From: an uncultured Gemmatimonadales bacterium
GTDB lineage: Bacteria > Gemmatimonadota > Gemmatimonadetes > Gemmatimonadales > GWC2-71-9
Reading direction: 5' to 3'
NCBI GenBank assembly: GCA_963825055.1
Contig: CAWGSK010000007.1
Location: 152,450 to 216,449 of the forward strand
DNA: 64,000 nucleotides
The position numbers were made by a program, and so were the translations under genes. Below the pieces are notes generated by a model that saw only the letters and a list, made by a program, of their open reading frames with translations, made no database searches and was not told where the DNA came from. Numbering within the stretch: position 1 is the first letter of the stretch; each line of letters opens with the position of its first letter. Below are positions 2,909-47,856 of this stretch, piece after piece.

Positions 2909-3738
2909 CCGAATCTCCCGGTAATGTAGGCCTCGGTCCGTTCCTCGGACGGAGCAGTGAAGACCTGGTCGGTCTCGCCGAACTCAATCAGCTTACCGCC
3001 GTCCAGGAATGCAGTATAGTCGCTCACCCGCGCCGCCTGCTGCATGTTGTGGGTGACGATCACGATCGTGTATTGCGCCTTCAACTCGATGATCAGCTCC
3101 TCCACCCGTTGCGTCGCGACGGGGTCCAGCGCGGAGCACGGCTCATCCATGAGCAGGACTTCCGGGCGGTTGCCGAGCGCCCGTGCAATGCAGAGCCGCT
3201 GCTGCTGGCCACCCGACAGCCCCGTGGCGGGCTCTTCGAGCCGGTCCTTCACCTCGTCCCACAGCGCAGCCCGTCGCAGGCATTCCTCCACCAGGTCGGG
3301 CAGGTCACGTTTCGGCACCAGGGCGTTGAGCGCCGGGCCGTACGCCACGTTCGCGAAGATGGACTTCGGGAACGGGTTCGGCCGCTGGAAGACCATCCCC
3401 ACCCTCTGACGGAGGGTCACCAGGTCGACGCCGGGCGCGTATACCGAGTCCCCGAGGAGCTTGAGGTCTCCCTGGTGGGACGTGCCGAGGATCAGGTCGT
3501 TCATCCGGTTGATGGAGCGGAGGAACGTGGACTTGCCGCAACCGGAGGGCCCGATAATGGCCGTGACCGCCTGCAGGGGAACGGACAGGGTAATGCCCTT
3601 CAGGACCTCGCCCTTCCCGTAGGAGAAGCAAAAATCCTCCGCCTGGACCGCCGGTGCGCCCGGCCCCGGGTTGTCGGGGCGCGGGGCCAGGGTGCGGCGG
3701 ATGCCCGGAATGAGGCCACGCGACGCAGGGGCGCTCAC
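2905..3738 (-). CDS. pstB: Phosphate ABC transporter ATPase PstB (copy 2)
   Basis: [44 protein letters not shown]. Confidence 0.95.
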
Positions 3739-4499
3739 CCGAACCGCCCGGTGACGTAGGCTTCGGTCTGCTCGTTGTGCGGCGTCGTGAACATCTGCTT
3801 CGTCTGTCCCGTTTCGACCATCGTGCCCAGGTAGAAGAAGGTGGTCGTGTCCGACACGCGCGCGGCCTGTTGCAGGTTGTGCGTCACGATCACGATGGTG
3901 AACTCCCGCTTGAGGTCGAACAGCAGTTCCTCGATGCGCTGGGTACTCTGCGGGTCGAGCGAGGCCGTCGGTTCGTCCAGGAGGATGACTTCGGGTCTCG
4001 GCGCGATCGTCCTGGCGATGCAGAGCCGCTGCTGCTGCCCGCCGGAGAGTGCGAGAGCGCTGCCCTTGAGGCGGTCCTTCACTTCATCCCAGAGGGCGGC
4101 CTGGCGCAGCGCCTGCTCCACGGCTTCGCCCATCCGGGCCCGGCCCAGGCCACCATTGATCCGGAGGCCCGCCGCCACGTTGTCGTAAATCGACATGGTC
4201 GGGAACGGCGTGGGGCGCTGGAACACCATCCCGATCCGGCGCCGCAGCTGCATCACGCTCACCCGGGGATGGTAGATATCCGCGCCGTCCAGCAGCACCG
4301 TCCCGGTGATCCAGCCACCCTCGACCAGCTCATGCATCCGGTTCATGGTCCGCAGGAACGTGCTCTTCCCGCACCCCGACGGTCCGATGAGCGCGTTCAC
4401 GGTGTTGGCCGCGAAACCGATGCTCACGTTCTTGACGGCAGTGAACTTGCCGTACATCGCCGTGAGCTTGTCGGTGGCGAGAATCGAGTCAGCGGACAC
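3735..4499 (-). CDS. pstB: Phosphate ABC transporter ATPase PstB (copy 1)
   Basis: [32 protein letters not shown]. Confidence 0.95.
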
Positions 4500-5331
4500 G
4501 GAACTTCCCGCGCGTGGCGAGGCGGGCCGCGATGCTCAGTACCAGGACCACCAGGATCAGGACCAGCGCTGCCGCCCACGCCATGCGGTGCCATTCCTCA
4601 TAGGGGCCCGTGGCGTAGACGAACACCGCAAGCGGCAGCGCCGCCATCGGCCGGGACGGGTCGAGCGAGAAGAACTGGCTCCCGAGGGCCGTGAACAGGA
4701 GCGGCGCGGTTTCGCCCGCCACGCGCGCCACGGCGAGCAGTATCCCGGTAATGATCCCGGGCAGCGTGGCGCGGACGACCACGGTCAGGCTGGTCCGCCA
4801 GCGCGCATACCCAAGGGCCAGCGCGGCTTCCCGGAGGCTGTTGGGCACCAGCTTGATCATTTCCTCGGTGGTGCGCATGACCATCGGCACCATGAGCAGG
4901 GCGAGTGCCACACTGCCGGCGAACGCCGAAAAGTGTTTCTGGGCCGCCACGATCCACGCCCACGCAAACACTCCCACGACGATCGAGGGCGTCCCGTTCA
5001 TGACGTCGGCCACGAAGCGGGTCGTGACGGCGAGGCGAGTCCCGGGGTACTCCGAGGCATAGATGCCGGCGCCGATACCGATGGGAAGGCCGAGGAGGCA
5101 GGCCAGTCCCACGATGATGAGCGTCCCCACGATGGCGTGGGCCACCCCGCCGCCAGTCTGCCCCGGCGGCGCCGGCATCTCGGTGAAGAACGCCAGGTTC
5201 AGGCTGCCCGCGCCCTTGATGACCAGGTTGAGGAGGATGAAGATCAGCGGCAGCAGCGCGAGGATGACGCACGCCGCCATGAGCCCCACCATCACCCGTC
5301 CGCGGAAGCGGCGTAAGGTCCGGCGGTTCAC
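4489..5331 (-). CDS. pstA: Phosphate ABC permease PstA
   Basis: [28 protein letters not shown]. Confidence 0.95.
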
Positions 5332-7647: not shown

Positions 7648-8739
7648 CTAGAAATGCACCGTCATGGCGCTGCGGACACCGCTGATTGCCTGGGCGCCCG
7701 GGGCCTGGAACCCCTGCCGCTCATAGGCGACGCGGAACTGGGCGTTCTTTGACAGGTAGAAGTTCACGCCCGCGGTCACGATCGTGGTGCCGTTATCCGA
7801 CACGTCCGTGTCGGGATCCGAGAAGTCGAACCGGACCGCGGGCTCCACCGCGTAGAGCCAGGCGTCGGGCCGGGTCATCCGGATGTGCCACGCGCCGACC
7901 AGCGAGAGGCCGCGCAGGCCCGCCTTTGCCGCGGTTGCGTCCTCGCCCCACATGTAGTCCCCCACCAGGTACAGGCCGGGGTCGCCGACCTTGCCCCACT
8001 GCGCGTCGATCCCGTAGGCCATGTTGGTGAAGGAGGAGTCCGGCGTTCCGCCGACGTCCACAATCCCGTCATGAGAGAAGAGCGCCCCGCCGACGTTCAG
8101 GCCGGGCACCACGTCCACCGTCGCGCGGACGCCGAAGGACTTGCTGGCATTCACGTCCGCCTTCGTCTCGCCCTCGCCGTTGTACACCCCGCCCTGGATG
8201 AACAGGCCACGGGTGTCGTCGAGCTTCGTCTGGAACCGGAGCGCGGCCCCGATGTCGTGCGAGATGAAGCCGTTCCCGCCGAACAGGTCGTTCGAGGAGG
8301 CCTTGACCAGGCCCGGGCCGGCCCCACGCTCGATGGAGGGCAGGTTGTTCGAACTCGTCAGCTCATAGCGGCCGAACGGGCGCTTCTCCTGGCCCGCCCG
8401 CAGGGTCAGGGTCGTCTTCGAACCGGGACGGCTCAGCAGCACGTCGACGAACGCATCCCGCAGCCGGAGCCGCCGGGAGCCGTCCTCGAAGGAAGGCTGC
8501 ACGATGAGGTAGATCCGGTCGGTCAGCCAGCCGTCCACCTGGATCCGCGCGCGGCGGAGCAGGAACTCGCTCTTGGGGCCAGTGCCGGCGTAATCACTGT
8601 TGTCGAAGTAGTAGAACTGCTCCTGCAGCCGGCCGGCCACTTTCATCTGGGGATATGTGGCCTGGGCGGCGAGATGCGCGGCGGGTACGGCCAGGAGAAC
8701 CGCCGACACCAGCATGGAGAGTCGCAGCAGACGGGGCAT
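7648..8739 (-). CDS. Phosphate-selective porin (OprO/OprP-like)
   Basis: Signal peptide, FLLRRARI, LRDAFVD, GQEKRPF, IERG, C-terminal Phe; sits in the pst cluster. Confidence 0.8.
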   Translation of the reverse strand: MPRLLRLSMLVSAVLLAVPAAHLAAQATYPQMKVAGRLQEQFYYFDNSDYAGTGPKSEFLLRRARIQVDGWLTDRIYLIVQPSFEDGSRRLRLRDAFVDVLLSRPGSKTTLTLRAGQEKRPFGRYELTSSNNLPSIERGAGPGLVKASSNDLFGGNGFISHDIGAALRFQTKLDDTRGLFIQGGVYNGEGETKADVNASKSFGVRATVDVVPGLNVGGALFSHDGIVDVGGTPDSSFTNMAYGIDAQWGKVGDPGLYLVGDYMWGEDATAAKAGLRGLSLVGAWHIRMTRPDAWLYAVEPAVRFDFSDPDTDVSDNGTTIVTAGVNFYLSKNAQFRVAYERQGFQAPGAQAISGVRSAMTVHF

Positions 8740-8831
8740 GTGCCTTCCGTGTCAGTGTGGAACCAGGTGTATCACGGCCGGCGTCGTCCGGTCGTGAGCG
8801 AATCGTCACAGGACAATGGAACGACCGTCCA

Positions 8832-8869
8832 GTCACGGAGGCCTGACGCTTCGGTCACGGAATGGTAAC
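8832..8869. promoter_or_regulatory. PHO-box-like 11-bp periodic repeats upstream of the porin
   Basis: GTCAC 8832, CTGAC 8843, GTCAC 8854, GTAAC 8865. Confidence 0.7.
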
Positions 8870-8872
8870 AGG

Positions 8873-8935
8873 GGGCAGGAGGTCGGGAGGTCGGGAGGTC
8901 GAGGGCCGGGAGGTCGAGGACTCGGGAGGTTGAGA
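8873..8935. repeat. Octamer-type tandem repeat (GGGAGGTC)
   Basis: ggaggtcgggaggtcgggaggtcgagggccgggaggtcgaggactcgggaggttgag. Confidence 0.75.
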
Positions 8936-8942
8936 TGCGTCG

Positions 8943-9305
8943 TCAGCGTGTGCTGTCGGGCAGCCCGCGGAAGGGGTCCTGGAAGATTTCCTCGTCGGTC
9001 GCCACGAAGCGCTGGAGCGGATGGCTCCGGAGCTGGACCAGGAGATCCCCGGGCAGCGCGATGATCTCGATCGTCAGCCGCTCCCTGACCTCCGCGTCAC
9101 GACAAAGGAGCCAGAGGAGTGCGGCGCCCACCGGGTCGATCCGCCGGGTGTGTGAGGCGTCCAGCGTCAGGCGGGTCAGGGCGGCCTGCCCGTCCAGGGT
9201 CGCTCGAAGCCGGCGTACCAGGCGTGGTTCGACTTCGGCAGGCAGAACGAGATGGAGATGCTCCCCGCTGTTGGCGGGTCTGGCGGCAAGGATCGCGTCG
9301 GTCAT
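8943..9305 (-). CDS. STAS-domain (anti-anti-sigma/MlaB-like) small protein
   Basis: LTLDASHTRRIDPVGAALL resembles the STAS hhDhSxhxxhDSxG motif; ATG at 9305 chosen because PHO-like repeats lie at 9329-9366. Confidence 0.6.
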   Translation of the reverse strand: MTDAILAARPANSGEHLHLVLPAEVEPRLVRRLRATLDGQAALTRLTLDASHTRRIDPVGAALLWLLCRDAEVRERLTIEIIALPGDLLVQLRSHPLQRFVATDEEIFQDPFRGLPDSTR

Positions 9306-9370
9306 GGGCTCAACGGAAACCCCGCCCGGCCACGAAATGGCGGGCGGGGCGTAACGACCTCGCAACGACC

Positions 9371-11089
9371 TCAATCCGTCGGGGACGCCATCGGGAACCA
9401 GACGCTGATCCGGGTGCCTTCCCCGAGTGTGCTGGACGCGGAGACCCGGCCCCCGTGGCTCTCCATCAGGTGCCGCACGATGGCGAGCCCGAGGCCCGTG
9501 CCGCCTTCGTCCCGGGAGCGGGAGGGATCGGCGCGGTAGAAGCGCTCGAAGATGCGCGGCAGGTGCTCCCGCGGAATGCCGGGCCCGGTGTCGGCGACGG
9601 TAAGCGACAGCCCGCCCCCCTCGGATCGCGCTTCCACCGTGATGCCTGAGCCGTCCGGCGCGTACCGGAGGGCGTTCTCCAACAGGTTCCGCAGCACCTG
9701 GTCAAGCGCGCCGGAATCCGCGGTGATCTCCCGGGCATCCGGCATGAGGTCGGTCTCGAGCGTGACCCCGCGGCGCAACGCCCGCTCCGCGAGCGGGGTC
9801 CAGGCCTCGCGGATGGCCGTGCCGAGGTCAAAGCGCTCTCGCTCGGGACGCCAGGTGCCGGCCTCGATCCGGGACAGGTCCAGCAGGCTGTCCACCAGTC
9901 GCTGCATCCGCCGCGCGTTGTCCATGATCACGCCGAGGAAGCGGGCCGTGGTGGCCTGGTCGGGCTGGTCCGACATCAGCGTTTCCGCGTAACCGGAGAT
10001 GGAGGTCAGCGGGGTCTTGAGCTCATGGGAGACATTCGCGACGAAATCCCGGCGGACCGTCTCCAGGCGGCGGATTTCGGTCAGGTCGTGCAGGACGACC
10101 ACCGCGCCGCCGCTCGGCAGGGAACGCGCGTTGATCAGGATCGTCTTGCCGTCCATCTCCACTTCGCGCCCCATCGTCGAATCACCGGCGATGACTTCGT
10201 CCATGACGGACCGGGCGGCCTTGGCGCGGAAGAGATGGGGAAGGTCCGGGAAGGACGCGTCGGGCTCGTAGCCGAGCAGACGACGGGCGGCGGAGTTCGC
10301 GATCACGATCCGGCCTTTCGGGTCGGCCGCGAGCACGCCCTCCACCATCGATTCCACCAGCGCCGCCGTCTCGGCCTGCTCCCGGCGGATCGCCTCGAAC
10401 CGGTCATCCAGCTGGACGTGCATCTGCCGGAGCGCGCGGACCAGCGTGTCAATCTCCGGGATGCCGGAACGGGGGAAGCGGGGTGGCGTGCCGGCCGCGA
10501 TCGCGCGGGCCGAGCCGGCGATGGCGATGAGGGGACGGGCGACGGACCGCCCGGCGATCACCGCGATGATAATACCGATCGCGAGGGCGACCAGCGAGGC
10601 GGCGAAGACCGACTGGTGGGCCTGGCGGATCATGGCGTCGGCGAGGCCGAGCCCGGCCGCGACCCGCACCACGCCCGGTCCGCCCGGGACCGCGACGTAC
10701 ACGAAGTCCTGGCCTACCGTCACGCTGTGGCGGCGGGCGGACCCATGCATGCCGGCGAGGGCGCTGTCGACCTCCGGACGCCCCCGGTGGTTCTCGACCG
10801 ACCCGAGCGCGGCGGCGGGAACGTCACTGTCCGCGACCACCACGCCGGCGGTATCGATCAGGGTGATGCGGCGGCGGTTCTCGTGCGCGAGGCGGGTAAC
10901 GAATGACTGCCACGCCTCCGGCGCCGGGGGAAGCGCCTCGCGGGCCAGGCTCGCCTCACGCTGCAGCTCCTGGCGGAGGTCGTCGGCCAGTGCGCCGCGG
11001 AGCGACCAGCCCGACACCCAGACCAGGACCGCAGTCGTGATGACCAGGACGAGAACCGTCCCGAGGACCAGCCGGGTGGCGAACCTCAC
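9371..11089 (-). CDS. phoR: PhoR-like sensor histidine kinase (HAMP/PAS/HisKA/HATPase)
   Basis: RRDFVANVSHELKTPLT, NLLENA, DTGPGI, FERFYR, GTGLGL. Confidence 0.9.
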   Translation of the reverse strand: MRFATRLVLGTVLVLVITTAVLVWVSGWSLRGALADDLRQELQREASLAREALPPAPEAWQSFVTRLAHENRRRITLIDTAGVVVADSDVPAAALGSVENHRGRPEVDSALAGMHGSARRHSVTVGQDFVYVAVPGGPGVVRVAAGLGLADAMIRQAHQSVFAASLVALAIGIIIAVIAGRSVARPLIAIAGSARAIAAGTPPRFPRSGIPEIDTLVRALRQMHVQLDDRFEAIRREQAETAALVESMVEGVLAADPKGRIVIANSAARRLLGYEPDASFPDLPHLFRAKAARSVMDEVIAGDSTMGREVEMDGKTILINARSLPSGGAVVVLHDLTEIRRLETVRRDFVANVSHELKTPLTSISGYAETLMSDQPDQATTARFLGVIMDNARRMQRLVDSLLDLSRIEAGTWRPERERFDLGTAIREAWTPLAERALRRGVTLETDLMPDAREITADSGALDQVLRNLLENALRYAPDGSGITVEARSEGGGLSLTVADTGPGIPREHLPRIFERFYRADPSRSRDEGGTGLGLAIVRHLMESHGGRVSASSTLGEGTRISVWFPMASPTD

Positions 11090-11793
11090 CGTCGGGTCGT
11101 CGCCCGCTCCGCCCCGCGGAAACGGTAGCCGAAGCCACGAACGGTTTCGATCAGGTCACCGTCCGCCCCAAGCTTGGACCGCAGCCGCTGGATGTGCATG
11201 TCCACCGTCCGCGTCTGGATGTCCGGTTGTGCGTCCCACACCGTCTCCAGGAGTTGCGGACGTGACTGCACACGCCCCCGGCGCTCCATGAGCGTATGGA
11301 GCAGGCGGTACTCGGTGGCGGTGAGGTCGAGTTCCTCGCCGCGCAGCGTGACACGGTGGGAACCCCGGTCCAGGGAGACGGGGCCCGCTGACAGGAGTGA
11401 ACCACTCGACACGGCAGGCGAGCCGAGCCGGCGGAGCAGTGCGTTGACCCGGAGCGTCAGCTCCTGGGGAGAGAACGGCTTGACCATGTAGTCATCCGCG
11501 CCCAGGGAGAGGCCGCGGATCCGGTCCGGTTCCTCGCGCCGCGCCGTCAGCAGGATGACCCCGACCTCCCGGGTCTCGTCGATGCGGCGCAGGTCCGCCA
11601 GGACGTCGTAGCCCGAGACGCCGGGCAGCATGACATCCAGCACGACTACGTCGGGGCGCTCTTCCCGGGCGGCCTTGAGGGCTTCCGGGCCGCTGGCCGC
11701 TGTGGAGACACGGTAGCCCGCCTTCGCCAGATGGTAGGCGACCAGTGCGGTGATATCGGGTTCGTCGTCCACAACGAGCACGCGATGACTCAT
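11086..11793 (-). CDS. phoB: PhoB-like OmpR-family response regulator
   Basis: VLVVDDE, LDVMLP, GADDYMVKPF, TRTVDMHIQRLR, TVRGFGYRF. Confidence 0.9.
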   Translation of the reverse strand: MSHRVLVVDDEPDITALVAYHLAKAGYRVSTAASGPEALKAAREERPDVVVLDVMLPGVSGYDVLADLRRIDETREVGVILLTARREEPDRIRGLSLGADDYMVKPFSPQELTLRVNALLRRLGSPAVSSGSLLSAGPVSLDRGSHRVTLRGEELDLTATEYRLLHTLMERRGRVQSRPQLLETVWDAQPDIQTRTVDMHIQRLRSKLGADGDLIETVRGFGYRFRGAERATTRR

Positions 11794-11812
11794 GCGATGC
11801 TTCTCCTCAGGT

Positions 11813-12190
11813 TCAACGGACCACGGCGGCGGATCCGCCGATCGCCGCCAGGCGGTTTCGGGTACTCGACCGGCTCACCGAGACCGCCTCCTCGCGGTCC
11901 CGGCGGTACTGCTCCTCGTCCGCGATGCCGTCCAGGACTGCCCGGAGCAGCCGGCCCGAGGCGTCGGCGCGGCGCTGCAGCCGGTACAGGACGAACTGGG
12001 CGATCGGCGTGTCCCGCACGATTCCCGCGGCCCGGAGCACCGCCAGGTGCCGGGAAACGGTGGGCTGGGGAATCTCCAGGATGGCCTGCAGGTCGGACAC
12101 GAACAGCGGCGCGGCGGCCAGGCAGTTCAGGATCCGGAGCCGCGTGGGTTCGGCGACCGTCAGGAGGAGGGATGCAGGAGTGTCGCTCAT
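11813..12190 (-). CDS. ArsR/SmtB-family transcriptional regulator
   Basis: EPTRLRIL, PQPTVSRHLAVLRAAGIV. Confidence 0.88.
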   Translation of the reverse strand: MSDTPASLLLTVAEPTRLRILNCLAAAPLFVSDLQAILEIPQPTVSRHLAVLRAAGIVRDTPIAQFVLYRLQRRADASGRLLRAVLDGIADEEQYRRDREEAVSVSRSSTRNRLAAIGGSAAVVR

Positions 12191-12269
12191 ATGCGTCTTG
12201 CCGAATATACACTGGCTCAGGCCGGTGGGAAGCCGTCGGCTCCGGTCCTCCGGTCCTTATATTCTGCCC

Positions 12270-15200
12270 ATGCTCCTCACCCTCCTTCTGGCGGGCGCGC
12301 TGGCGCTGCCGCTCCAGGACACCACCGCACATCTCGTGGTGGTGAGCACCACGGACGTCCACGGCCACGCCACCGCGTGGGACTACCTGAACGACCGTCC
12401 CTTCCCCGGCGGGCTCACGCGTGCCGCCACCGTGGTGGACTCCCTGCGCCGTGCGTGGCCCGGCCAGGTGGTGCTGGTGGACGCCGGCGACCTGATCCAG
12501 GGCGAACCGTTTGCGGCCTACCTCGCGCAGGAGAAGCCACGCGACCCGCATCCGGTGCTGGACGTGATGGGTGCAATGGGCTACGACGCGGCGACGCCCG
12601 GGAACCACGAGTTCAACTTCGGGCTGCCCTTCATGCAGCGCGCACTTTCCGCGGCCCGCTTTCCCTATGTGAGTGCGAACGTGCGCGCGGGGGCACGGGA
12701 CTCCCTGATGTTCGAGCCCTGGGTGGTGGTGCAACGCGCAGGTGTCAGGGTCGGGATTACGGGATTCACCACGCCGGGGGTCATGGTGTGGGACCGGGAG
12801 AACGTGCGGGGCCGCGCCTCGGTGGGCCGGATCCTGCCCGCCGCACGGCGCGTGCTTCCGGAGATGCGGGCCGGTGCCGACGTGGTGATCGCGCTCGTCC
12901 ATTCCGGTATGGCCGAGGCCTCCTCCTACGATACGACGGGCGTGGGGCTGGAGAACACCGCGCAGGCGCTTGCCACCACGGCTTCACCGCCAGACCTGGT
13001 GATTGTCGGACATACGCACCGGGAAATGGTGGACTCCGTCGTCGGCGGGGTGCATTTCGTCCAGCCGAGGCCGTATGCGGAGAGTGTCTCGGTCGTGCAC
13101 CTCGAGCTTGCGCGCCGCGACGGTCGCTGGGTCGTCACTTCGATCCGGGGCCAGGCCGTCCCGCTGGCCGGGGTCCCGCCCCTCCCGGCGCTGGTCCGTC
13201 GGCTCGCGCCGCTACAGGCGGAAGTGCGGGCCTGGGCGACGCAACCGATCGCGAGCGCCTTCGGGGACATGCCCGCCCGTTATGGGCGGGCCGGGCCCAC
13301 GGGCGTGGTGAACTTCGTGAACGAAGTTCAGCGGCGGCAGGCCGGGGCACAGCTTTCCTCGACACCCGTGTTCAACACGTCAGCCGGTTTCCCGCGGGGC
13401 GAGATCCGGCTGGCCGACGTGGCCGCGATCTATCCGTACGAAAACACGCTCCGCGCCATCCGCATCTCGGGCGCCCAGCTCAGGGCGTACCTCGAGCAGA
13501 GCGCCCGCTACTTCACCGTGAGTCCGGAGGGCAGGGTCGGGCTCAATCCGGAGATCCCGGGGTACGACTTCGACATCATGAGCGGGGTGGAGTACGCCAT
13601 CGACCTGCGTTATCCCCCCGGGGACCGGATCCGCGGGCTGACGGTGGGCGGCAGGCCGGTAGTACCGGGCGACAGCTTCACGCTTGCCCTCAACAGCTAC
13701 CGCCAGGCCGGAGGTGGCGGCTATGCGATGCTCAAGGATGCGCCCGTCGTGTACGACAGGGGTGAGAACATCCGCGACCTGCTCATCGCCGCGGTGAAGG
13801 ACCGCCAGATCCTCCGGCCGGAAGACTACGCGGCGGCCAACTGGCGCATCGTCCCGGTCGAAGCCGAGGCGCAGGTGAGGGCCCTGTTCGGGGAGGAAGC
13901 CCGCCGCGCCGTGCGTGCCCCGGCGCCGCGGGACAGCATCGAGGTGCGGCTGATCGCGCTCAACGATTTCCACGGCGCCCTCCACCCGCGGGTGGAGGAA
14001 TGGTCCGGCGGGGAGCCCGTCGGCGGTGCCGCGCGGGTGCAGTCAGTGATGGACTCCGTGGCCGGGGCGTGCCGGTGCGCCACGCTCCGTCTCGACGCGG
14101 GCGACGGGATGCAGGGCTCCCTCCCGTCCAACCTGGTCCACGGCCGCTCCACCATCGAGGTGATGAACCGGCTCGGGATCAGGGCTGCCGCGGTCGGCAA
14201 CCACGACTTCGACTGGTCGGTGGACACGCTGCGGCAGCGGATGGCGGAATCGCGGTACCCCTGGCTGAGCGCCAACCTGGTCGATTCCGTGACCGGCCGC
14301 TCTCCCGCCTGGGTCCAGCCCTGGGTCATGCTCGACGCGGGTGGAACCAGTGTGGGGGTCATCGGGTACAGCAGCCCGGGAACGAAGGCAATCGTGCGGC
14401 AGGGGTTGCTCGCGGGCCTCGAGTTCCGGGGGCCGGACGGCCTCGCCGGGCCGCTGGCCGCCCTCCGGGCGAGGAAGCCCGACGTCGTGGTCGTGCTCGC
14501 GCACGCCGGTGGCCGCTGCAATGCGCAGGCCTGCGCGGGCGAGGTCATCGACCTCGCCCGGGCGCTTCCCCCCGGTTCGGTCGACCTGATCCTGGGGGGT
14601 CACGTGCACGAGCCGCTCGATACGCTCGTCAACGGGATACGCATCGTGCAGGGCAGGCCCCGGGGTGGTGCCGTGACGGTGGTGGACATCCTCCGCACAC
14701 CGGTCGGCGCGAGGGAAGTGCACGCCCGCCTGGTTCCCGTGACCGGAGGTGTGACTCCCGACAGCGGGATGGCGGCGCTCGTGGCGGAGTACGACAGCCG
14801 GACCGGGGCCGTGGCGGGGCGCGAAGTGGCCCGGATCCGCTTTCCACTCGAGCGGACCGGCCGGCAGCATCCGCTCGGGCTCCTCGTGGCCGAGTCGTTC
14901 CGTACGGCGCTCCGGACGGACGTGGGCCTCGTGAACAACGGCGCCCTCCAGGCCGGGCTCACCTCGGGTCCGGTGACCTGGTCGCAGGTCTATGAGGTCC
15001 AGCCGTTCCAGAACCAGCTGATGCGCGTCACGCTGAGCGGTGACCAGCTTGAGGCGCTGGTCGAGTCGCTGCTCGCGGACGGCGAGCCGAAGTCGCACCT
15101 TGCGGGGCTCGAAGTGCGGTGGGATTCCACCCGTCCTGCGGGGCAGCGCGTGCGGGAGATCCGCATCCGGAACGGCAGCAGGATCGAGCGGAAGCGGCAC

Positions 15201-33092: not shown

Positions 33093-33165
<73 letters not shown>

Positions 33166-33182
33166 TCGTAGCCAAGCACTTA

Positions 33183-38430
<5,248 letters not shown>

Positions 38431-38483
38431 ATGACCGCTACCCTCGAATAGGCCTCGGCCTGACCGAAGCCATCGAACGCGGA

Positions 38484-38777
38484 GTGGAAAAAGCCGTGGC
38501 CGCCAGTGGACGCGCCTCCTCGTGCTGGACGCCGGAGCGCTTCTGGTCGTGCCCACCCACCGTCAGGCTCTCGGCGGATGAGCTCGCCTCGGCGCTGGGC
38601 TGCTCGACGCGCACCGTCTACCGCTTCGTGACGGAGAAGGGGATGCCAGCCCGACGACGAGAGGACGTCTACGTGTTCATCGACGGGAGACGTCCGGTCG
38701 TGGCTGGAAGAGCGAGAAACCGTCATCAACGGCGTCAAGCGATTCCGGGGGAGGGGCGATGCCTAAGTTCGACCTGA
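38484..38777 (+). CDS. Excisionase-like helix-turn-helix protein (error-containing)
   Basis: LSADELASALGCSTRTVYRFVTEKGMPARR resembles HTH_17/Xis. Confidence 0.65.
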   Translation: MEKAVAASGRASSCWTPERFWSCPPTVRLSADELASALGCSTRTVYRFVTEKGMPARRREDVYVFIDGRRPVVAGRARNRHQRRQAIPGEGRCLSST

Positions 38778-39254
38778 ATGAAGTTGCCGAACGTGCTGAC
38801 GCCGCGGACAACTGAGCGCGTACTGGAAGACATGGCGGAAGAGAGCGGGCTTCGCGCCGCGGTGCGTGGACGGCTATGCACAGCTTGACCTACACGCGGA
38901 AATCTACGCCGTGAGAGAACCTCGCCGCGGAGATCCAGAACGGAACGCCCCGACTGGTCGTCACTCGCGGTGTCTTGATGAGGCCGAGGCCCATTTACTC
39001 CCGGACCGTAGCGATGAGTTGCTGAGCCGACCGAAGGCCATCCGGACGACATTGGCTCGATGGGGGAACGGCGAGTGAAGGACTGGCCAGAAGAGTGAAT
39101 GCAGACACAATGTGTGCTCGCCCCGGAAGTACATCGAGATAGGATAGTTCTGTCACGCTAGACGGCCGGTAAAGCGACCCCGGTTGAACAGCTGACCGGG
39201 CTCGGCAGCGTCGCGGCTGGCCGAGCCACCCTCTCCCTCTCGATGGAGTACACG

Positions 39255-39835
39255 ATGGCGAAGTCCGCACTCACGCTGGAGGCCGAACTCGGTCAACTCC
39301 AGTCGAAGCTCTATCCCCTCTACGCGGCAGCAGGAAGAGGCCAACGCGATCGGCCACGACCTACGCCTGCGCCCAACGGTCGGCGACCGGGTCGGCGCTC
39401 ACGGCCATCATCCTTGAACGAGAGAAGGCCGACGCCGAAGTCCTCCGGCTCACCAAGGAGATCGAGCCGCTCAAGGACCGGGCCGAGGAGATCACCCGGA
39501 CCCTCGCGGCGGAGCGCCGGGCCGTCCAACTGAAGGTGATGCACGAGCACGCCCACGCCGCCGTGAAGCACGCTCCGGTGATCGTGGACACGGCGGCAGC
39601 CTTGGCCGCAGCCGTAACCAAGCTGGTCGCGGACCACAACGCCGTGGTCGGCGCCGCCCGCACCGATGAACAGCACGGCCTCCGTGACGACGCGGCGAAC
39701 CTCGCGGCGGTCTCGGACTTCATCCTCAGCCAGCTGGTGACCGCCGGACTCCCGGTGCGCCTCCCGCGAGGCACGGGGCTCAGTCTCGTTGACACGGCCG
39801 CAGCCGTCGTCACGATGGTCGAGACGCTGTCATGA
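39255..39835 (+). CDS. Hypothetical coiled-coil protein (frameshifted)
   Basis: MAKSALTLEAELGQLQSKL... continues after indels as ...EKADAEVLRLTKEIEPLKDRAEEI...MVETLS*; GGAG RBS; high-GC codon usage. Confidence 0.5.
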
Positions 39836-40179
39836 GCGCCACGCCCAAGGTGCCCGGCACGCGACCCGGTGAGCTCCTCCGCGACCTCCGCGACCCGCGG
39901 CTCACAGCGGCCTACCCGCGGCCCGACGACATGTCGGACGAGCTGTACCTCAACCACCTCCGCGCCTCGGGGTTCGCCCTCGTGCTGCCCCGTGCCGACC
40001 TCGCCGCCGGGGAGTACGCCCGAACCAAGGCTAAGGCGATTCTCAGCGGGGCGGTGGTCGTGGTCCCCTACGAGCCCGATGAGCAGTTGCCCGACCCACC
40101 CCCTGAACCCTTCGACTACGTGGCGTGGCGGCGGCAGCACGACGCCGACCAGCGCACGCCCTACGAGCGCCTCCCATGA
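39832..40179 (+). CDS. Hypothetical protein
   Basis: Intact ORF with ATGA coupling to both neighbours. Confidence 0.55.
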   Translation: MSATPKVPGTRPGELLRDLRDPRLTAAYPRPDDMSDELYLNHLRASGFALVLPRADLAAGEYARTKAKAILSGAVVVVPYEPDEQLPDPPPEPFDYVAWRRQHDADQRTPYERLP

Positions 40180-40398
40180 CCATCCCCGTCCTGCCCGAGA
40201 CGCCGACCGACCTGGCCTCCGCCCGAACCTATCTGGCGTGGATCGCCGACGCGTCGCTCCGGGTGCAGATACCCCGCGACGCCGCCCTCGCCGCCACGAA
40301 AGCCGTGGAAGCCTGGGTCCGCGTCGAGAACTACGACGTCGCAGCTCCGCAGCCTCGAGAAGAAGATCAAGGAGATGCAGGCCCGTGTCGCCGGTTGA
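40176..40398 (+). CDS. Small hypothetical protein directly upstream of terL (TerS position; one frameshift)
   Basis: MTIPVLPETPTDLASARTYLAWIADA...VEAWVRVENYD /frameshift/ LREKIKEMQARVAG*. Confidence 0.45.
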
Positions 40399-41945
40399 CG
40401 GACAGCTCGCCGCGCTCTGGGCCGACGTCGGTGACCTCGTAGAAGCGCGGGAGCGGCGAACCGCCACCGACTTCACCCGGTACCGCGACGACCCCGTGGC
40501 CTTCGCGACCGAGGTGCTCCGCGTCTCGCGGCTCTGGGACGCGCAATGCGCCCACCTCAGAGCCGTGGCAGAGCACCGCCGCGTGGTTGCCTATGGCGCC
40601 AACGGGTGCGGTAAGACCTTCGATGACGCCATTCTCGCGCTGTGGTGGGTGTACGCGCACGATGGGCTGGTGATCGCCACGAGCGCCCGTGAGGGCCAGC
40701 TCCGCGACCAGTTCATGCGCGACGTGAAGATCCTCTGGCACCAAGCTGTGGACCTCGACGGCGAGCTGCTCACCCTCGCGCTCCGGCGGCCCACGAACCC
40801 CCACAGTGGGATCCTCTCCGTGGCGGCCGGGGAGTCGTCCCGGCTCCGGGGGTTCCACGCGCGCGGCTCCTCGTGTCGCTGCAGGAGGCGCAGGGGCTGG
40901 AGGAGTGGGTGTTCCAGACGGCGGAGATGATGGCCGTCGGGGACGTTGACTGGGTGCTGGCGACGGGCAACTGCGACCTCGGAGCGACAGGCCCGTTCTA
41001 CAAGGCGGCGCGGTCACCCCATTGGCGGGCCGTCCGGTTCAACGCGGAGGAGCACCAGAACGTCCGGGAGGGCGTGACGGTGATCCCCGGTGGGCCGACG
41101 CAAGCCTCCCTCGCGCAACGAGCGGGCGACTACGGCGTGGACACCCGTTCTACATCTAGTCAGTGCTGGGGGAGTTCCCGACCGACGCGATGGAGGGATT
41201 GGTCAAGGTGTAGTGGCTCGAAGCCGCCTTCGCGGCCTTCGACACACCTCGGTACAGTGAGCAGATGGGGAGCGGGCGGCTCGTCCTAGGGGTAGACGTG
41301 GCGCGGTTCGGAGCTGACAGGTCGGTGGTCGCCGTGCTGCAAGGACCGGTGGTCCGCGACTTCCACGCGTGGCAGGGCGCCGACCTGGAGGTGAGCGCCG
41401 GGCGGGTCATCGAGGTCGCCCGCCGGTACGGGATCAGACGGCGGCGCCCGCGCCGCATCATGGAGGAGCTTGGCCTCACCCGGAGCGGGTTCGGGGACTT
41501 GGTGGCCGCCCCCGGTGACCCCTTGGAGTACATGGAGCACGCCCACCGGGCAGGGCTCCGCATCGACGCCATCGGCCTCGGCGCGGGACTGCACGACCGC
41601 CTCGCCCACGACGGCTGGCCGGTCGAGGCCTTCAACGCCGCCAGCAAGGCGGTCGGCCCGCAGGCGGAGCGGTTCGCCAACCGCCGCGCCCAGGCACTGT
41701 TCGACCTCCGGCACCTCTTGGAGGCGGGCGAGCTGGCGCTCCCGCCGACGCACCGCGACGTCCTGACCCGCGAACTCACCTCCATCACCTGGTGGGTCAC
41801 GGGCACCGGGAAGGTGCTGATCGAGTCGAAGGGCGATGTGCGGGCCAAGCTCGGCGCCTCACCCGACTACAGTGACGCCCTCGCGATGGCCGTGACGAGC
41901 GACGGGGCGGTCAGCTTCGACGTGGAGCACGCCGGCGCGGTGTAG
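40385..41945 (+). pseudogene. terL: Phage terminase large subunit, interrupted by frameshifts and stops (real or sequencing error)
   Basis: YRDDPVAF..EVL, Walker A GANGCGKT, LRGFH, ATGN, LGEFP, nuclease motifs LGVDVARFGAD, IDAIGLG, SPDYSDALAMA; breaks near 40860 and 41145-41215. Confidence 0.85.
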
Positions 41946-42542
41946 TTCGAGGGGTAATGGTGATGGTGGGTATTCCCTGGCTCGATTGTATGTGCTACTA
42001 GTTGTGTTCCTCTTATGTTTGGAGAGTGTGCCGGAGTCAGTTTTGTAGTGCGCGTCGGGCTGCGCTCGATTTCGATGAAATAAGATTTGGTTTCGTGTGG
42101 GTGTTCTTGTACTTGAGCCTCGAGTACCTTTTTTGGTGGATAAAGATGTATGTTAGAGCTCGACCTCCTCTTGTGTCTGATGGCTCATCAGTTGCCGGTG
42201 TTGTACGGGCGTTCTCGGCGCTCTCCGCCGTGCGATAGGTAAGCTATGAGACGGAGTGGATGTAGGTTTTTGATTTGTTTTGACTTAGGTAGTCTATATT
42301 GTTTATCGGCGCGTTGCTGTTCCGTCGGTTGGTTTTGCAGTTACGTTTAATTTTGGTTTGTTGTTCTTAATTTGGACGGACAGGCGGACAGGACGGACAA
42401 GGCGGACAGGCACGAATCGGCCCCGGTCAGTGTGATCGGGGCCGATGTGTTTCCGTCCCACGCAGTCGCGGCTCTGGACAGAGAGAGCCCGGCGAATACA
42501 CTCGCCGGAACAGCCTCCTGACCACGAACCAGGCGGAGCTCC

Positions 42543-43592
42543 ATGAACCCATCGAAGGTCGCCATCGTCCTGACAGGGATTGCCACGCTGTTCGCCTGCA
42601 CCAGGCCCGACGCTTCAACATCCGGTCATTCGACCGAACACGCGATCACTGACTCAACGGGAGCTCAGCGGCAGTGGCTCGATCCGGGGCTCGAGCTCAC
42701 GGCGACTGTGGGTGGCTCGGCGGAGGATACGACTCTCCTCAATCCCTATCGCCTGGCCGCGGGGGAGGACGCGATCTACGTCTTCGACGGCAACCAGCGC
42801 CTGCTGTCATTCGCGATCGATGGATCGCTGCGCTGGGTCCGCGGGCGGGCGGGATCCGGGCCGGGGGAATTCCGGCTGGTGCGGGCCTTGAAGGCGCGGG
42901 AGGGCCTGATCTATGTGCTCGACCCCCGGAACGCCCGCCTGACGGTTTTCGATGATGCCGGCCAGATGATTCGTACCACCCCCATGCGTACCGGACATTC
43001 CGAGGAACTGGCCGTCCTTCCGGATGGCGATGTGGTCCTGTTCCCTGCGCAGTCGGAATCGGACTTCGTGGTCATTGACGACAGCGGTCATACGATCCGG
43101 TCAGGACGGATCCCCTGGCCCCCTTACCAGGAATTGGATTTCCTCGCGAAACAGTCCGTGGTTGCGCAGCCGGCCGATTCGAGTGGCCTCTGGGCGCTCG
43201 GGTTCCGGCTGGGAAACGGCTGGTTCACCTTCGATGCCCGGGCCGAACCGGTGGATTCGACCAGGCACTACTACGTGGAGCCGACGAACTTCCCCGAGGT
43301 GATCCGGGAGCGGAACGGGAACAGCTTCTCCACGCATATCCCCCGCACCCCTGCCTCGGCCAGGAGTATGATTGTGCAGAGGGATACTCTCTTCGTCCTG
43401 GTGGAAGCGGGAGACAGTGCGGGCCGCAAGATTGACTTGTACCGGATGTCGACGGGTGCCTATCTGGGGTCCTTCCTCCTTCCGCACAAGGCCATCGAGA
43501 TCGCCGCAAACGGCGCAGTGTTCGCCTGGCTCGAGAACGATCCGATGCCGGCGCTGAGGATCGCGCGACGGGGAACGCTCGAGAGAAACTGA
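42543..43592 (+). CDS. 6-bladed beta-propeller / NHL-repeat lipoprotein
   Basis: LFAC lipobox, IYVFD, GRAGSGPGEF, IYVLD repeats. Confidence 0.75.
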   Translation: MNPSKVAIVLTGIATLFACTRPDASTSGHSTEHAITDSTGAQRQWLDPGLELTATVGGSAEDTTLLNPYRLAAGEDAIYVFDGNQRLLSFAIDGSLRWVRGRAGSGPGEFRLVRALKAREGLIYVLDPRNARLTVFDDAGQMIRTTPMRTGHSEELAVLPDGDVVLFPAQSESDFVVIDDSGHTIRSGRIPWPPYQELDFLAKQSVVAQPADSSGLWALGFRLGNGWFTFDARAEPVDSTRHYYVEPTNFPEVIRERNGNSFSTHIPRTPASARSMIVQRDTLFVLVEAGDSAGRKIDLYRMSTGAYLGSFLLPHKAIEIAANGAVFAWLENDPMPALRIARRGTLERN

Positions 43593-43910: not shown

Positions 43911-44005
43911 GACGGACAGGCGGACAAGGCGGTCGGTGGAGCTCCCAGGTTCATCGACCGTTCGTCACTTGAGTGACAGATCGGCCGAGTCGCGACCTTG
44001 GTCGC

Positions 44006-44095
44006 GAAGAGGGCGGAAGTGAACAGGGCGGACGTGAACAGGGCGGACGTGAGCAGGGCGGACCTGAACAGGGCGGACGTGAACAGGGCGGGCGA
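44006..44095. repeat. 15-mer tandem repeat (GAACAGGGCGGACGT)
   Basis: About 5-6 units; same family as 57790-57900. Confidence 0.85.
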
Positions 44096-44114
44096 GGCCC
44101 GTTCACGGAAGTCT

Positions 44115-44207
44115 TGTCATTTCGAGCGCAGCGAGAAATCTCAAGAGTCGGTTGCTGTCGAGGGCTGCTCTTGAGATCTCTCGGGCCTGGCGGCCCTCGA
44201 GATGACA
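44115..44207. repeat. 93-bp palindromic REP/MITE-like element, copy 1
   Basis: TGTCATTTCGAG...AAATCTCAAGAG / CTCTTGAGATCT...CTCGAGATGACA; followed by a CCCCTCGA octamer array. Confidence 0.85.
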
Positions 44208-44461
44208 CGATCTTCGGAGCGACCCCTCGACCCCTCGACCCCTCGACCCCTCGACTCCTCAACTCCAGCCCTTTACCCACCCCCTCCCACCCCCTAGGTT
44301 CCGGCTCCCGGCGCTCTCGGGCCCCTGTCGCCGGGATCTGTTCGGCCCTGCTGGTCCCCCGCTGTACCTCAGGATTTTCCGACGCAGACTTGACGGTCCC
44401 ATTTTCGAGGGCAATATTGGCCGCCCGTCCAAGTTCCCTCAGGCTTGGAGTCTCAGATACA

Positions 44462-47416: not shown

Positions 47417-47626
47417 AGAGCAGGGCGGTCGAGACGGTCCAGCGAGACCCTCGTCGCCGGAAGCGACGACGTGCCGAGCAGTGACCGAAGGGAATACCAT
47501 GACGCGAGCGACGCGGCCCACAGGCGCGGCAATCCCGCGCCTCGGCCGCGAGTGAACGCTTGGCGGCTTCAGCCGCGTGGAAAGGTCGGTCGTGAATAAG
47601 GCGGTGGTGCCGCTTCAAGGAAGCCG

Positions 47627-47719
47627 TGTCATTTCGAGCGCAGCGAGAAATCTCAAGAGTCGGATGTTATCGAAAGCGGCCCTTGAGATCTCTCGGGCCT
47701 GGCGGCCCTCGAGATGACA
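47627..47719. repeat. 93-bp palindromic REP/MITE-like element, copy 2
   Basis: Arms essentially identical to copy 1, loop diverged; followed by CGCCTCCA and GACTCAAC octamer arrays up to ~47862. Confidence 0.85.
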
Positions 47720-47856
47720 CGATATTCGGAACGCCTCCACGCCTCCACGCCTCCACGCCTCCACGCCTCCACGCCTCCACGCCTCCACGCCTCAACGACT
47801 CAACGACCTCAACCACTCACCCACTCAACGACTCAACGACTCAACCACTCAACCCC

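Follow-up and report, generated by a model that had tools for sequence, protein, structure and literature searches.

Described phage satellites either redirect the large terminase (TerL) of a helper phage, as do phage-inducible chromosomal islands (PICIs), PLE and PICMI, or bring a TerL together with their own portal and capsid, as do capsid-forming PICIs (cf-PICIs). A satellite with a small terminase (TerS) and a TerL alone fills the gap between these two types. Here we describe a mobile island of about 9 kb that adjoins a tRNA-Lys gene in a 64,000-nucleotide stretch of the genome of an uncultured Gemmatimonadales bacterium (contig CAWGSK010000007.1, positions 152,450 to 216,449; hereafter, the window) and that carries terminase genes with no shell or portal genes seen. 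The window copy has an integrase relic, an excisionase (xis)-type helix-turn-helix (HTH) gene, and terL in a gene order common to relatives that are bounded by attachment (att) repeats, and no portal or capsid match was found in these relatives. We conclude, with a probability of roughly 0.6, that the island is a PICI-like satellite with its own TerS-TerL pair, which loads its DNA into helper procapsids.

The published sources compared here were available in part, and the comparisons hold for those parts. Classical PICIs, as described by de Sousa et al. (2023; PMC10085698, SatelliteFinder), resemble the island and its relatives in having an integrase, a xis-type HTH gene, a primase-replicase (readable in relatives) and a probable small terminase, in their size of about 9-15 kb, in tRNA integration, and in cargo such as restriction-modification genes after the packaging genes. 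According to this source, further phage structural genes are typically absent from PICIs, and terL is a specific marker of cf-PICIs. Unlike classical PICIs, the elements studied here carry terL and do not show the PICI reliance on the large terminase of the helper; no capsid-morphogenesis gene of a known family was found, and no AlpA-type regulator matched in the window, where an HTH_17 protein is present and the rest of the regulator slot is unreadable. The cf-PICIs (EcCIEDL933; bioRxiv 10.1101/2022.09.08.507074) are likewise integrative satellites, of 12-15 kb, with their own TerS and TerL and several independent phage origins. The portal, major capsid, protease, head-tail connector and HNH genes of cf-PICIs were not found in the att-bounded elements; 11/11 bounded or circular elements and 11/11 held-out loci described below gave no portal or capsid match, and the terminase is of the Sf6/E217 type and not HNH-dependent.

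The nearest described element is NitKor-E1 of Ca. Nitrosopumilus koreensis AR1 (Krupovic et al., 2019; PMC6563490), compared by its description, which has a tyrosine integrase, TerS, TerL, defence-type cargo and no other head-tail virus gene. It is a single archaeal element, called enigmatic and a likely relic, whereas the Gemmatimonadota islands recur across orders. EPIPs of Mycolicibacterium (PMC12822802) are satellites of about 11 kb with TerS and a tape-measure protein, and tape-measure or tape-measure-like genes also occur in six of our loci (L006, L009, L042, L348, L353, L358); unlike the islands, EPIPs have no TerL listed in that source and carry a serine integrase and scaffold and head-tail genes. 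The pSSVx/SRCE satellites (bioRxiv 10.1101/2025.02.15.638363) resemble the islands in keeping a homologue of the helper ATPase and no capsid protein, but this is an analogy only, given an unrelated AAA+ ATPase, a plasmid lifestyle and non-tailed helpers. The link to P4-like satellites is limited to a Psu lead from the ESM Atlas (see below); Sid, Delta and alpha primase were not searched for.

Several other candidates were rejected as precedents: AH14b, which has no terminase (PMC4936722); PICI-like tycheposons, which carry terS or a capsid gene; VEIMEs, which have TerS and presumably use the TerL of the helper (PMC9618062); Wolbachia pWALBA1 (TerL with portal) and pWCP (pseudogenised TerL); an Asgard satellite, with no terminase shown in the available part of its description; and TerI, described in its source, as far as available, as a small inhibitor of terminase. 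In the literature searched, which left supplements and subscription journals outside, no TerL-bearing satellite family without portal and capsid was found described, and PMC11389934 contributed nothing here. Members of such a family may nevertheless be present in the VEIME, tycheposon and SatelliteFinder datasets.

Layout and gene content of the island

The window is the end of contig C7 of the host assembly (G000; 3.53 Mb, 35 contigs, 87% complete, 6% contaminated). Its features are given below with reference to L047, the closest syntenic relative, in which the HTH, coiled-coil, 115-aa, small and terL open reading frames (ORFs) follow in the same order.

33093..33165, + strand: tRNA-Lys(ttt), left end and presumed integration site (ARAGORN)
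33166..34450, no strand: about 1.3 kb of low complexity that could not be read; by comparison with L047 gene content, a slot for cargo or a regulator
about 34450..35750, + strand: tyrosine integrase, relics only, matching the L047 integrase; start estimated from L047
35750..38430, no strand: unreadable, 2.68 kb; replication slot by analogy with the same interval in L047
38431..38777, + strand: excisionase-type HTH protein, ends frameshifted and read by eye; PF12728 (HTH_17-like), E 7.7e-5
38760..39078, + strand: hypothetical ORF of about 105 aa, frameshifted; from frames and third-position GC content (GC3)
39255..39835, + strand: coiled-coil protein of about 193 aa, frameshifted near 39360; E 1.6e-11 to L047 homologue
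39832..40179, + strand: hypothetical protein of 115 aa; 41% identical over 85 aa to L047 homologue, E 2e-13
40176..40398, + strand: two-helix protein of about 74 aa, probable small terminase, frameshift near 40340; homologues precede terL
40385..41945, + strand: large terminase, 520 aa read through with X at breaks; phrog_2, nuclease domain of Sf6/E217 type
41946..42370, no strand: garbled sequence; may hide the right attachment site (attR); too short for a portal gene
42543..43592, + strand: 6-bladed beta-propeller lipoprotein, host gene or cargo; PF17170, E 2e-4

An earlier note, made from the sequence alone, had described a tRNA-Lys island of about 9 kb with a co-oriented and mostly translationally coupled run of HTH, coiled-coil, hypothetical, small ORF and terL genes. 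The tRNA gene was confirmed, and the run stands on the + strand, with the addition of the ORF at 38760-39078, which had not been listed, and with terL, the coiled-coil ORF and the small ORF not intact as assembled. Coupling holds at the overlaps at 39832 and 40176 and at the start of terL, 14 nt inside the small ORF, and fails for the coiled-coil ORF, which is uncoupled to the ORF before it. No attR was found in an att search of the genome and window, so that 9 kb is a minimum size; in an att alignment the best match (34 of 88 points) was tRNA-Asn, and the garbled stretch scored 19 versus a shuffle median of 21. Relatives L047, L058 and L356 are integrated in tRNA-Lys(ctt), with att repeats of 42-63 bp.

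About 5.3 kb of purine-rich, low-GC, low-complexity sequence lies 3' of the tRNA-Lys gene; four stretches of this kind were flagged in the genome, and none of the others is as long. This stretch looks like long-read basecalling noise that preserved length, because six collinear integrase relics (34895-35744) fall at offsets of 0 to -5 nt from the spacing in L047. These relics were picked by position from about 60 mostly chance matches of a permissive search, and only the last three are significant alone. The relic at 35605-35744 aligns over 141 nt with the integrase gene of L047, at 73% nt identity (E 6.8e-16; E 7e-11 in a second comparison), whose protein matches phrog_1 (E 1.8e-28). Thus, the estimate in the earlier note that over half the island is unreadable was too pessimistic in this part, which is readable as an integrase ending at about 35750. 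From there to the HTH gene the window has 2681 nt and L047 has 2941 nt, which in L047 hold two small ORFs and a 528-aa primase; primases also occur in L045 and L046. The searches that the note had suggested, for integrase, primase and att sites, recovered the integrase relics alone, and no primase or cargo relic was found in the window noise. In L047 the slot corresponding to 33166..34450 holds restriction-modification and other genes.

The unreadable slots of the window could not be scanned for head genes of the cf-PICI kind, and they are accounted for by the integrase and replication spacing. Besides these, 1.3 kb is left on the left side and 0.4-0.6 kb on the right. This space could not hold both a portal and a capsid gene, which would have to take the place of the replication gene. 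About 600 nt separate the terL stop from the next ORF, with no portal gene directly after terL. The note had placed some 430 nt of garbled sequence here, followed by host-like DNA; the garble does run from 41945 to about 42370, but the beta-propeller gene at 42543 could be cargo. This gene has 9 further tblastn matches in the genome and a GC3 of 0.78, compared to 0.85-0.92 for most neighbours.

The readable part contains many breaks: two frameshifts and two in-frame TAG codons in terL, at least one frameshift each in the coiled-coil and small ORFs, and about four more, read by eye, in the HTH gene and the ORF at 38760-39078. In a control of 40 host genes with orthologue-like matches (from 91 queries; 15,311 aligned aa), one frame split and two stops were seen. 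The island copy is either poorly covered or decaying. We favour poor coverage, because noise flanks both sides, and the breaks are most simply long-read errors. Two soil-metagenome runs have 0.23 and 0.15 of the sampled words in common with the query, which we do not count as evidence.

The HTH protein is 53% identical over 83 aa to that of L047 (E 1e-20). The ORF at 38760-39078 sits where L047 has a 109-aa ORF, a likeness seen by eye without a significant alignment, and the 115-aa protein had no Pfam or PHROG match. The coiled-coil protein belongs to a 20-member family and has an all-helical model (pLDDT 74). Its nearest named clusters in the ESM Atlas were Psu (0.87 for the window piece, with low recognition; 0.90 for the L047 homologue, 17/30 matches). 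Among 14 coiled-coil candidates none matched PF07455 (Psu) at E 1; fold searches returned generic helical matches only (best Z 10.7, colicin Ia), and the best E in a profile search of PDB sequences was 0.13. The protein is thus a candidate capsid-size or decoration factor, as a Psu/Sid-like lead only.

Relatives without portal or capsid matches

A terL profile matched 27/401 genomes of the order of the host, G000 included, with only three candidates scored per genome. The discovery set comprised 29 terL loci of this order. Eleven of these (5.9-15.3 kb) have a full-length terL and either lie between att repeats or form a circle:

L006: circle of 14,415 bp with a single tRNA 3' copy, 8873-8903 (G018:C116, whole contig)
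L007: 5.9 kb (8570-14469), tRNA-Leu, intact terL; no integrase, primase or small-ORF match
L009: 12.7 kb, att-bounded
L043: 8.8 kb, no integrase match
L045: 13.8 kb, repeat outside tRNA
L046: 15.3 kb
L047: 14.8 kb, tRNA-Lys; terL with a frameshift some 35 codons from its end
L050: 12.6 kb
L056: 12.8 kb
L058: 9.1 kb, tRNA-Lys
L061: 11.8 kb

The remaining loci were assigned as follows:

L063: bounded, terL fragment only, with an insertion sequence
L042, L048, L049: terL followed by more than 2.5 kb without portal; no att pair
L044, L052, L053, L055, L059, L060: too near a contig end
L011, L062: fragments
L051, L054, L057, L065: prophage-like, with portal matches
L064, L066: prophage-like; portal-like ORFs cut by contig ends and unscanned

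No portal or major capsid match to PHROGs was found in 16 element loci, including the 11 bounded or circular ones, in a scan of called genes of at least 55 aa and extra ORFs of at least 200 aa, but all four control prophage loci (4/4) gave portal matches. Matches of structural type were limited to L006 and L042 (neck or tail-completion proteins) and L061 (a virion protein, weakly). An integrase matched in 9/11 bounded or circular elements. Integration sites varied (tRNA-Val, Arg, Leu, Lys, Asn, Ala, His and Pro), and the TerS-TerL pair was kept. The circularity of L006 and its single tRNA 3' copy are as expected of an excised form.

This pattern was also found in a held-out set from a phylum-wide search, in which 28/401 genomes matched and gave 11 new loci from other orders. 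Five of the 11 are att-bounded: L348 (18.5 kb), L353 (13.7 kb), L354 (7.4 kb, truncated terL), L356 (12.2 kb, tRNA-Lys) and L358 (7.9 kb). A portal or capsid match was found in 0/11, on scanning 72/144 ORFs of at least 140 aa, chosen for lying within or close to the elements, together with a few extra pieces. By contrast, a long ORF follows terL in 145/193 viral and metagenome loci with enough room, and the next ORF is a portal gene in 38/48 tested (48 of 84 listed viral and metagenome loci).

Pattern scans of wider collections returned no close terminase. In viral contigs 0/15 candidates came close with a single protein, and the best identity was at most 30% among the matches listed; in metagenomes the best terL identity was at most 31% among the matches listed; and in genomes no new close terL appeared, only G060 itself and one Gemmatimonadaceae fragment.

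The terminase genes and possible helpers

The small ORF is 49-53% identical to the ORFs directly upstream of terL in L047 and L045, and its family stands directly before terL in nearly all elements, whose rows built the profile. Outside these rows the profile matched 8/11 held-out loci, L052 and, in each of the phage contigs L076 and L081, an ORF that lies upstream of terL (E 2.7e-12 and 2.7e-9); among 233 outside loci it matched only these two and L196, itself a profile member. The predicted structure is a two-helix hairpin (pLDDT 92.5), in many cases preceded by a small Cys/His-rich segment. Comparisons with known TerS families and structures gave no match, and the model hit generic hairpins only (best Z 7.0). 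The small ORF probably encodes TerS, because of its position and its place in the packaging cassettes of L076 and L081.

The N- and C-terminal pieces of the window terL match phrog_2 (E 1.1e-9 and 3.5e-6), the middle piece does not, and the whole aligns over 518 aa with the intact protein P0008, at 70% identity. Its PDB matches are the large terminases of E217 and Sf6 (E 2e-7 to 1e-5), which we take to be headful-type enzymes. In 9/9 element pairs terL dN/dS (the ratio of nonsynonymous to synonymous change) was 0.11-0.61.

In unrooted trees of terL (114-row FastTree and 56-row IQ-TREE), the window protein falls in a subclade with support of 1.0 and 100, respectively. It holds L045, L047 and proteins without genomic context (among P0001-P0026), and no phage. 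The two members with known context are both att-bounded islands without portal genes. Together with the viral matches of at most 30% identity given above, this runs counter to the outcome that the earlier note had named as refuting its proposal, nearest homologues in complete prophages, and the att-bounded relatives without portal genes support its satellite-like reading. That the element brings its own packaging motor is likely, judged from these genes. The wider clade contains most elements and the phage contigs L076 and L081, which carry a phrog_145 portal and a phrog_283 capsid. A second terL group holds L056, L058, L196 and L356-L358, and L061 pairs with prophage L064. The element label needs at least three changes on the starred branches, which, without a root, show no direction; this number fits repeated capture of the terminase.

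The helpers are probably phages with long tails whose portal and head are of SPP1 type; L076 and L081 are of this kind and share the TerS-TerL family. Prophages with the L081-type capsid occur in 4/401 genomes of the class.

We propose that on infection or induction of a helper the island would excise, a step supported by circular L006, and would replicate with its own primase. The island TerS would then recognise its own packaging site, and the island TerL would cut the concatemer and dock on the portal of the helper procapsid, so that island DNA would be packaged at the expense of the helper. The coiled-coil protein may alter the size of the capsid or decorate it.

Terminase motifs and alternative explanations

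TerL has the Walker A Lys and the catalytic Glu, together with the coupling motif and three acidic motifs of the nuclease. In place of the Walker B Asp, 14/14 subclade rows have another residue (Gln in 11, Gly in 2, Ser in 1), and a compensating Asp at the end of Walker A is present in 0/13 subclade rows with an aligned Walker A. By contrast, 70/70 outside viral and metagenome terminases are acidic at one of the two places, 67 in Walker B and 3 in a swapped form with Asp ending Walker A and Ser or Thr in Walker B. The swapped form also occurs in phages L076 (terL at 3292-5211), L081 (9974-11560) and L096 and in many other element TerLs, and seems compatible with packaging, because it is found in phage contigs with portal genes. 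Asp-Glu is described as canonical, and the Glu-Glu of Sf6 as deviant, in the available part of PMC6379665.

These substitutions, with the catalytic Glu and nuclease motifs kept, are what would be expected if the subclade TerL no longer pumps and instead cuts the concatemer for the motor of the helper, or acts as a dominant-negative subunit in the helper motor ring or at the portal and so blocks phage packaging, a decoy role that the earlier note had also raised. Loss of the Walker B Asp would be expected to stop the motor, but our literature searches found no statement to this effect, which counts against this explanation. Moreover, the ATPase domain is conserved over its whole length (45-70% identity) and has its Walker A Lys, the motifs are normal or compensated in other family members, and the element has kept a TerS candidate, a gene of no use to a pure decoy. 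We consider the explanation unlikely, though it survives better than those that follow. A bolder combined proposal is equally doubtful: a class of satellites, captured several times in Gemmatimonadota, that replaces the whole terminase of the helper and borrows its portal, capsid and tail, in which the TerL of the window lineage, without the acidic Mg-binding residue, would cut DNA or would poison the helper motor as one of its subunits.

Decay of a temperate phage that lost everything from the portal gene onward appears improbable. The order int-xis-replication-terS-terL does resemble the left-hand portion of a prophage, the wider terL clade has L076 and L081, both phage contigs, nested in it, L061 is sister to prophage L064, the window copy is full of breaks, and Krupovic et al. 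read NitKor-E1 in this way in the available part of PMC6563490. However, 12 discovery loci (decayed L063 included) and 5 held-out loci from several orders are att-bounded or circular, and all lack the same genes; 15 have a full-length terL. Random deletion would not each time spare terL and remove portal and capsid genes. In addition, some elements carry an integrase after terL, one is circular, and no phage is found among the subclade rows of the window.

It is very improbable that the terminase was co-opted for a role outside capsids, such as cutting concatemers into monomers, with spread by vesicles or another route. Conserved nuclease motifs and an ATPase motif that drifts in one subclade would suit such a role, but relatives gain tail-assembly genes (tape-measure in L358 and L348, neck or tail-completion in L006 and L042, prohead protease in L196), which point to phage particles. 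Hardly credible is an assembly artefact in which a chimeric or noisy long read put the element of another strain at tRNA-Lys: both ends are garbled, no attR was found, breaks far exceed those in host genes and the assembly is 6% contaminated, but relatives occupy tRNA-Lys in the same orientation and order, the integrase spacing is within 5 nt of L047, and the artefact would affect placement only, not the family.

Several points weigh against our preferred reading of the island as a satellite packaged by a helper. Helper packaging is read from gene content. The window copy has no intact terL as assembled and no attR, and its primase comes from spacing alone; L047, its closest syntenic relative, itself has the terL frameshift noted above. 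Remnants exist (L011, L062, L063, L354), as do split terL genes (L351, L355), and the dN/dS values are rough because dS is near saturation in this GC-rich DNA. The uncompensated Walker B loss may weaken motor activity in the window subclade. Contacts between TerL and portal are usually specific, and a foreign TerL may not dock. The three Gemmatimonadota prophages with the L081-type capsid that were examined had terminases of other clades, and the host assembly, 87% complete, gave no match to phrog_145 or phrog_283, the two helper-type families searched. Finally, a very divergent portal or capsid could escape PHROGs.

With this family it becomes possible to ask by experiment to what degree a large terminase depends on its cognate portal, a standing question, and its intact members (P0008, P0009, L006, L009) allow enzymology without the broken window copy. 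A lone terL in a genome is no proof of a prophage or of decay. If the cutter or poison-subunit explanation were true, a full-length TerL would have been turned into an anti-phage or hijacking device.

Cargo and other features

L006, the best complete model of the family, encodes an integrase, an AAA-type replication gene, a TerS candidate, TerL, a neck protein and a toxin-antitoxin-like pair, and its tape-measure-like ORF spans the contig ends. Two islands, L046 and L047, occur in one genome (G094:C15 and G094:C10), with related integrases and terLs of different subclades. DNA methyltransferase cargo was seen in L045, L046, L047/L067, L050 and L058, most beside a nuclease-like ORF, and a similar methyltransferase-nuclease pair lies beside the terL remnant L011. 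The cargo of L007 includes an HslV-family peptidase and a ClpP-like ORF.

Tape-measure or tape-measure-like genes of 1000-1200 aa were seen at L009:5959-9177, L042:14534-17566, L353:4455-8045, L358:6632-9679 and L348:14693-17013 (split). The tape-measure PHROG matches only L358 and, weakly, L348. These genes suggest a subgroup of islands that also sets tail length. L196:518-9111 is a metagenome element in tRNA-Leu with a TerS candidate, TerL, a prohead-protease domain protein, a coiled-coil protein and an integrase; no portal was found among six ORFs scanned. In two viral contigs (L078:847-2370 and L082:3253-4956) several kb of small ORFs separate terL from the next long ORF.

Two more regions of the host genome with low GC or skew, at G000:C11:105250-107250 and at C34:110500-113250 beside tRNA-Arg, could be noisy islands. 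Short intergenic tandem repeats at 43951-44210 and 47615-47800 of the window have a longer motif in common and resemble host repetitive extragenic palindromic (REP)-type elements.

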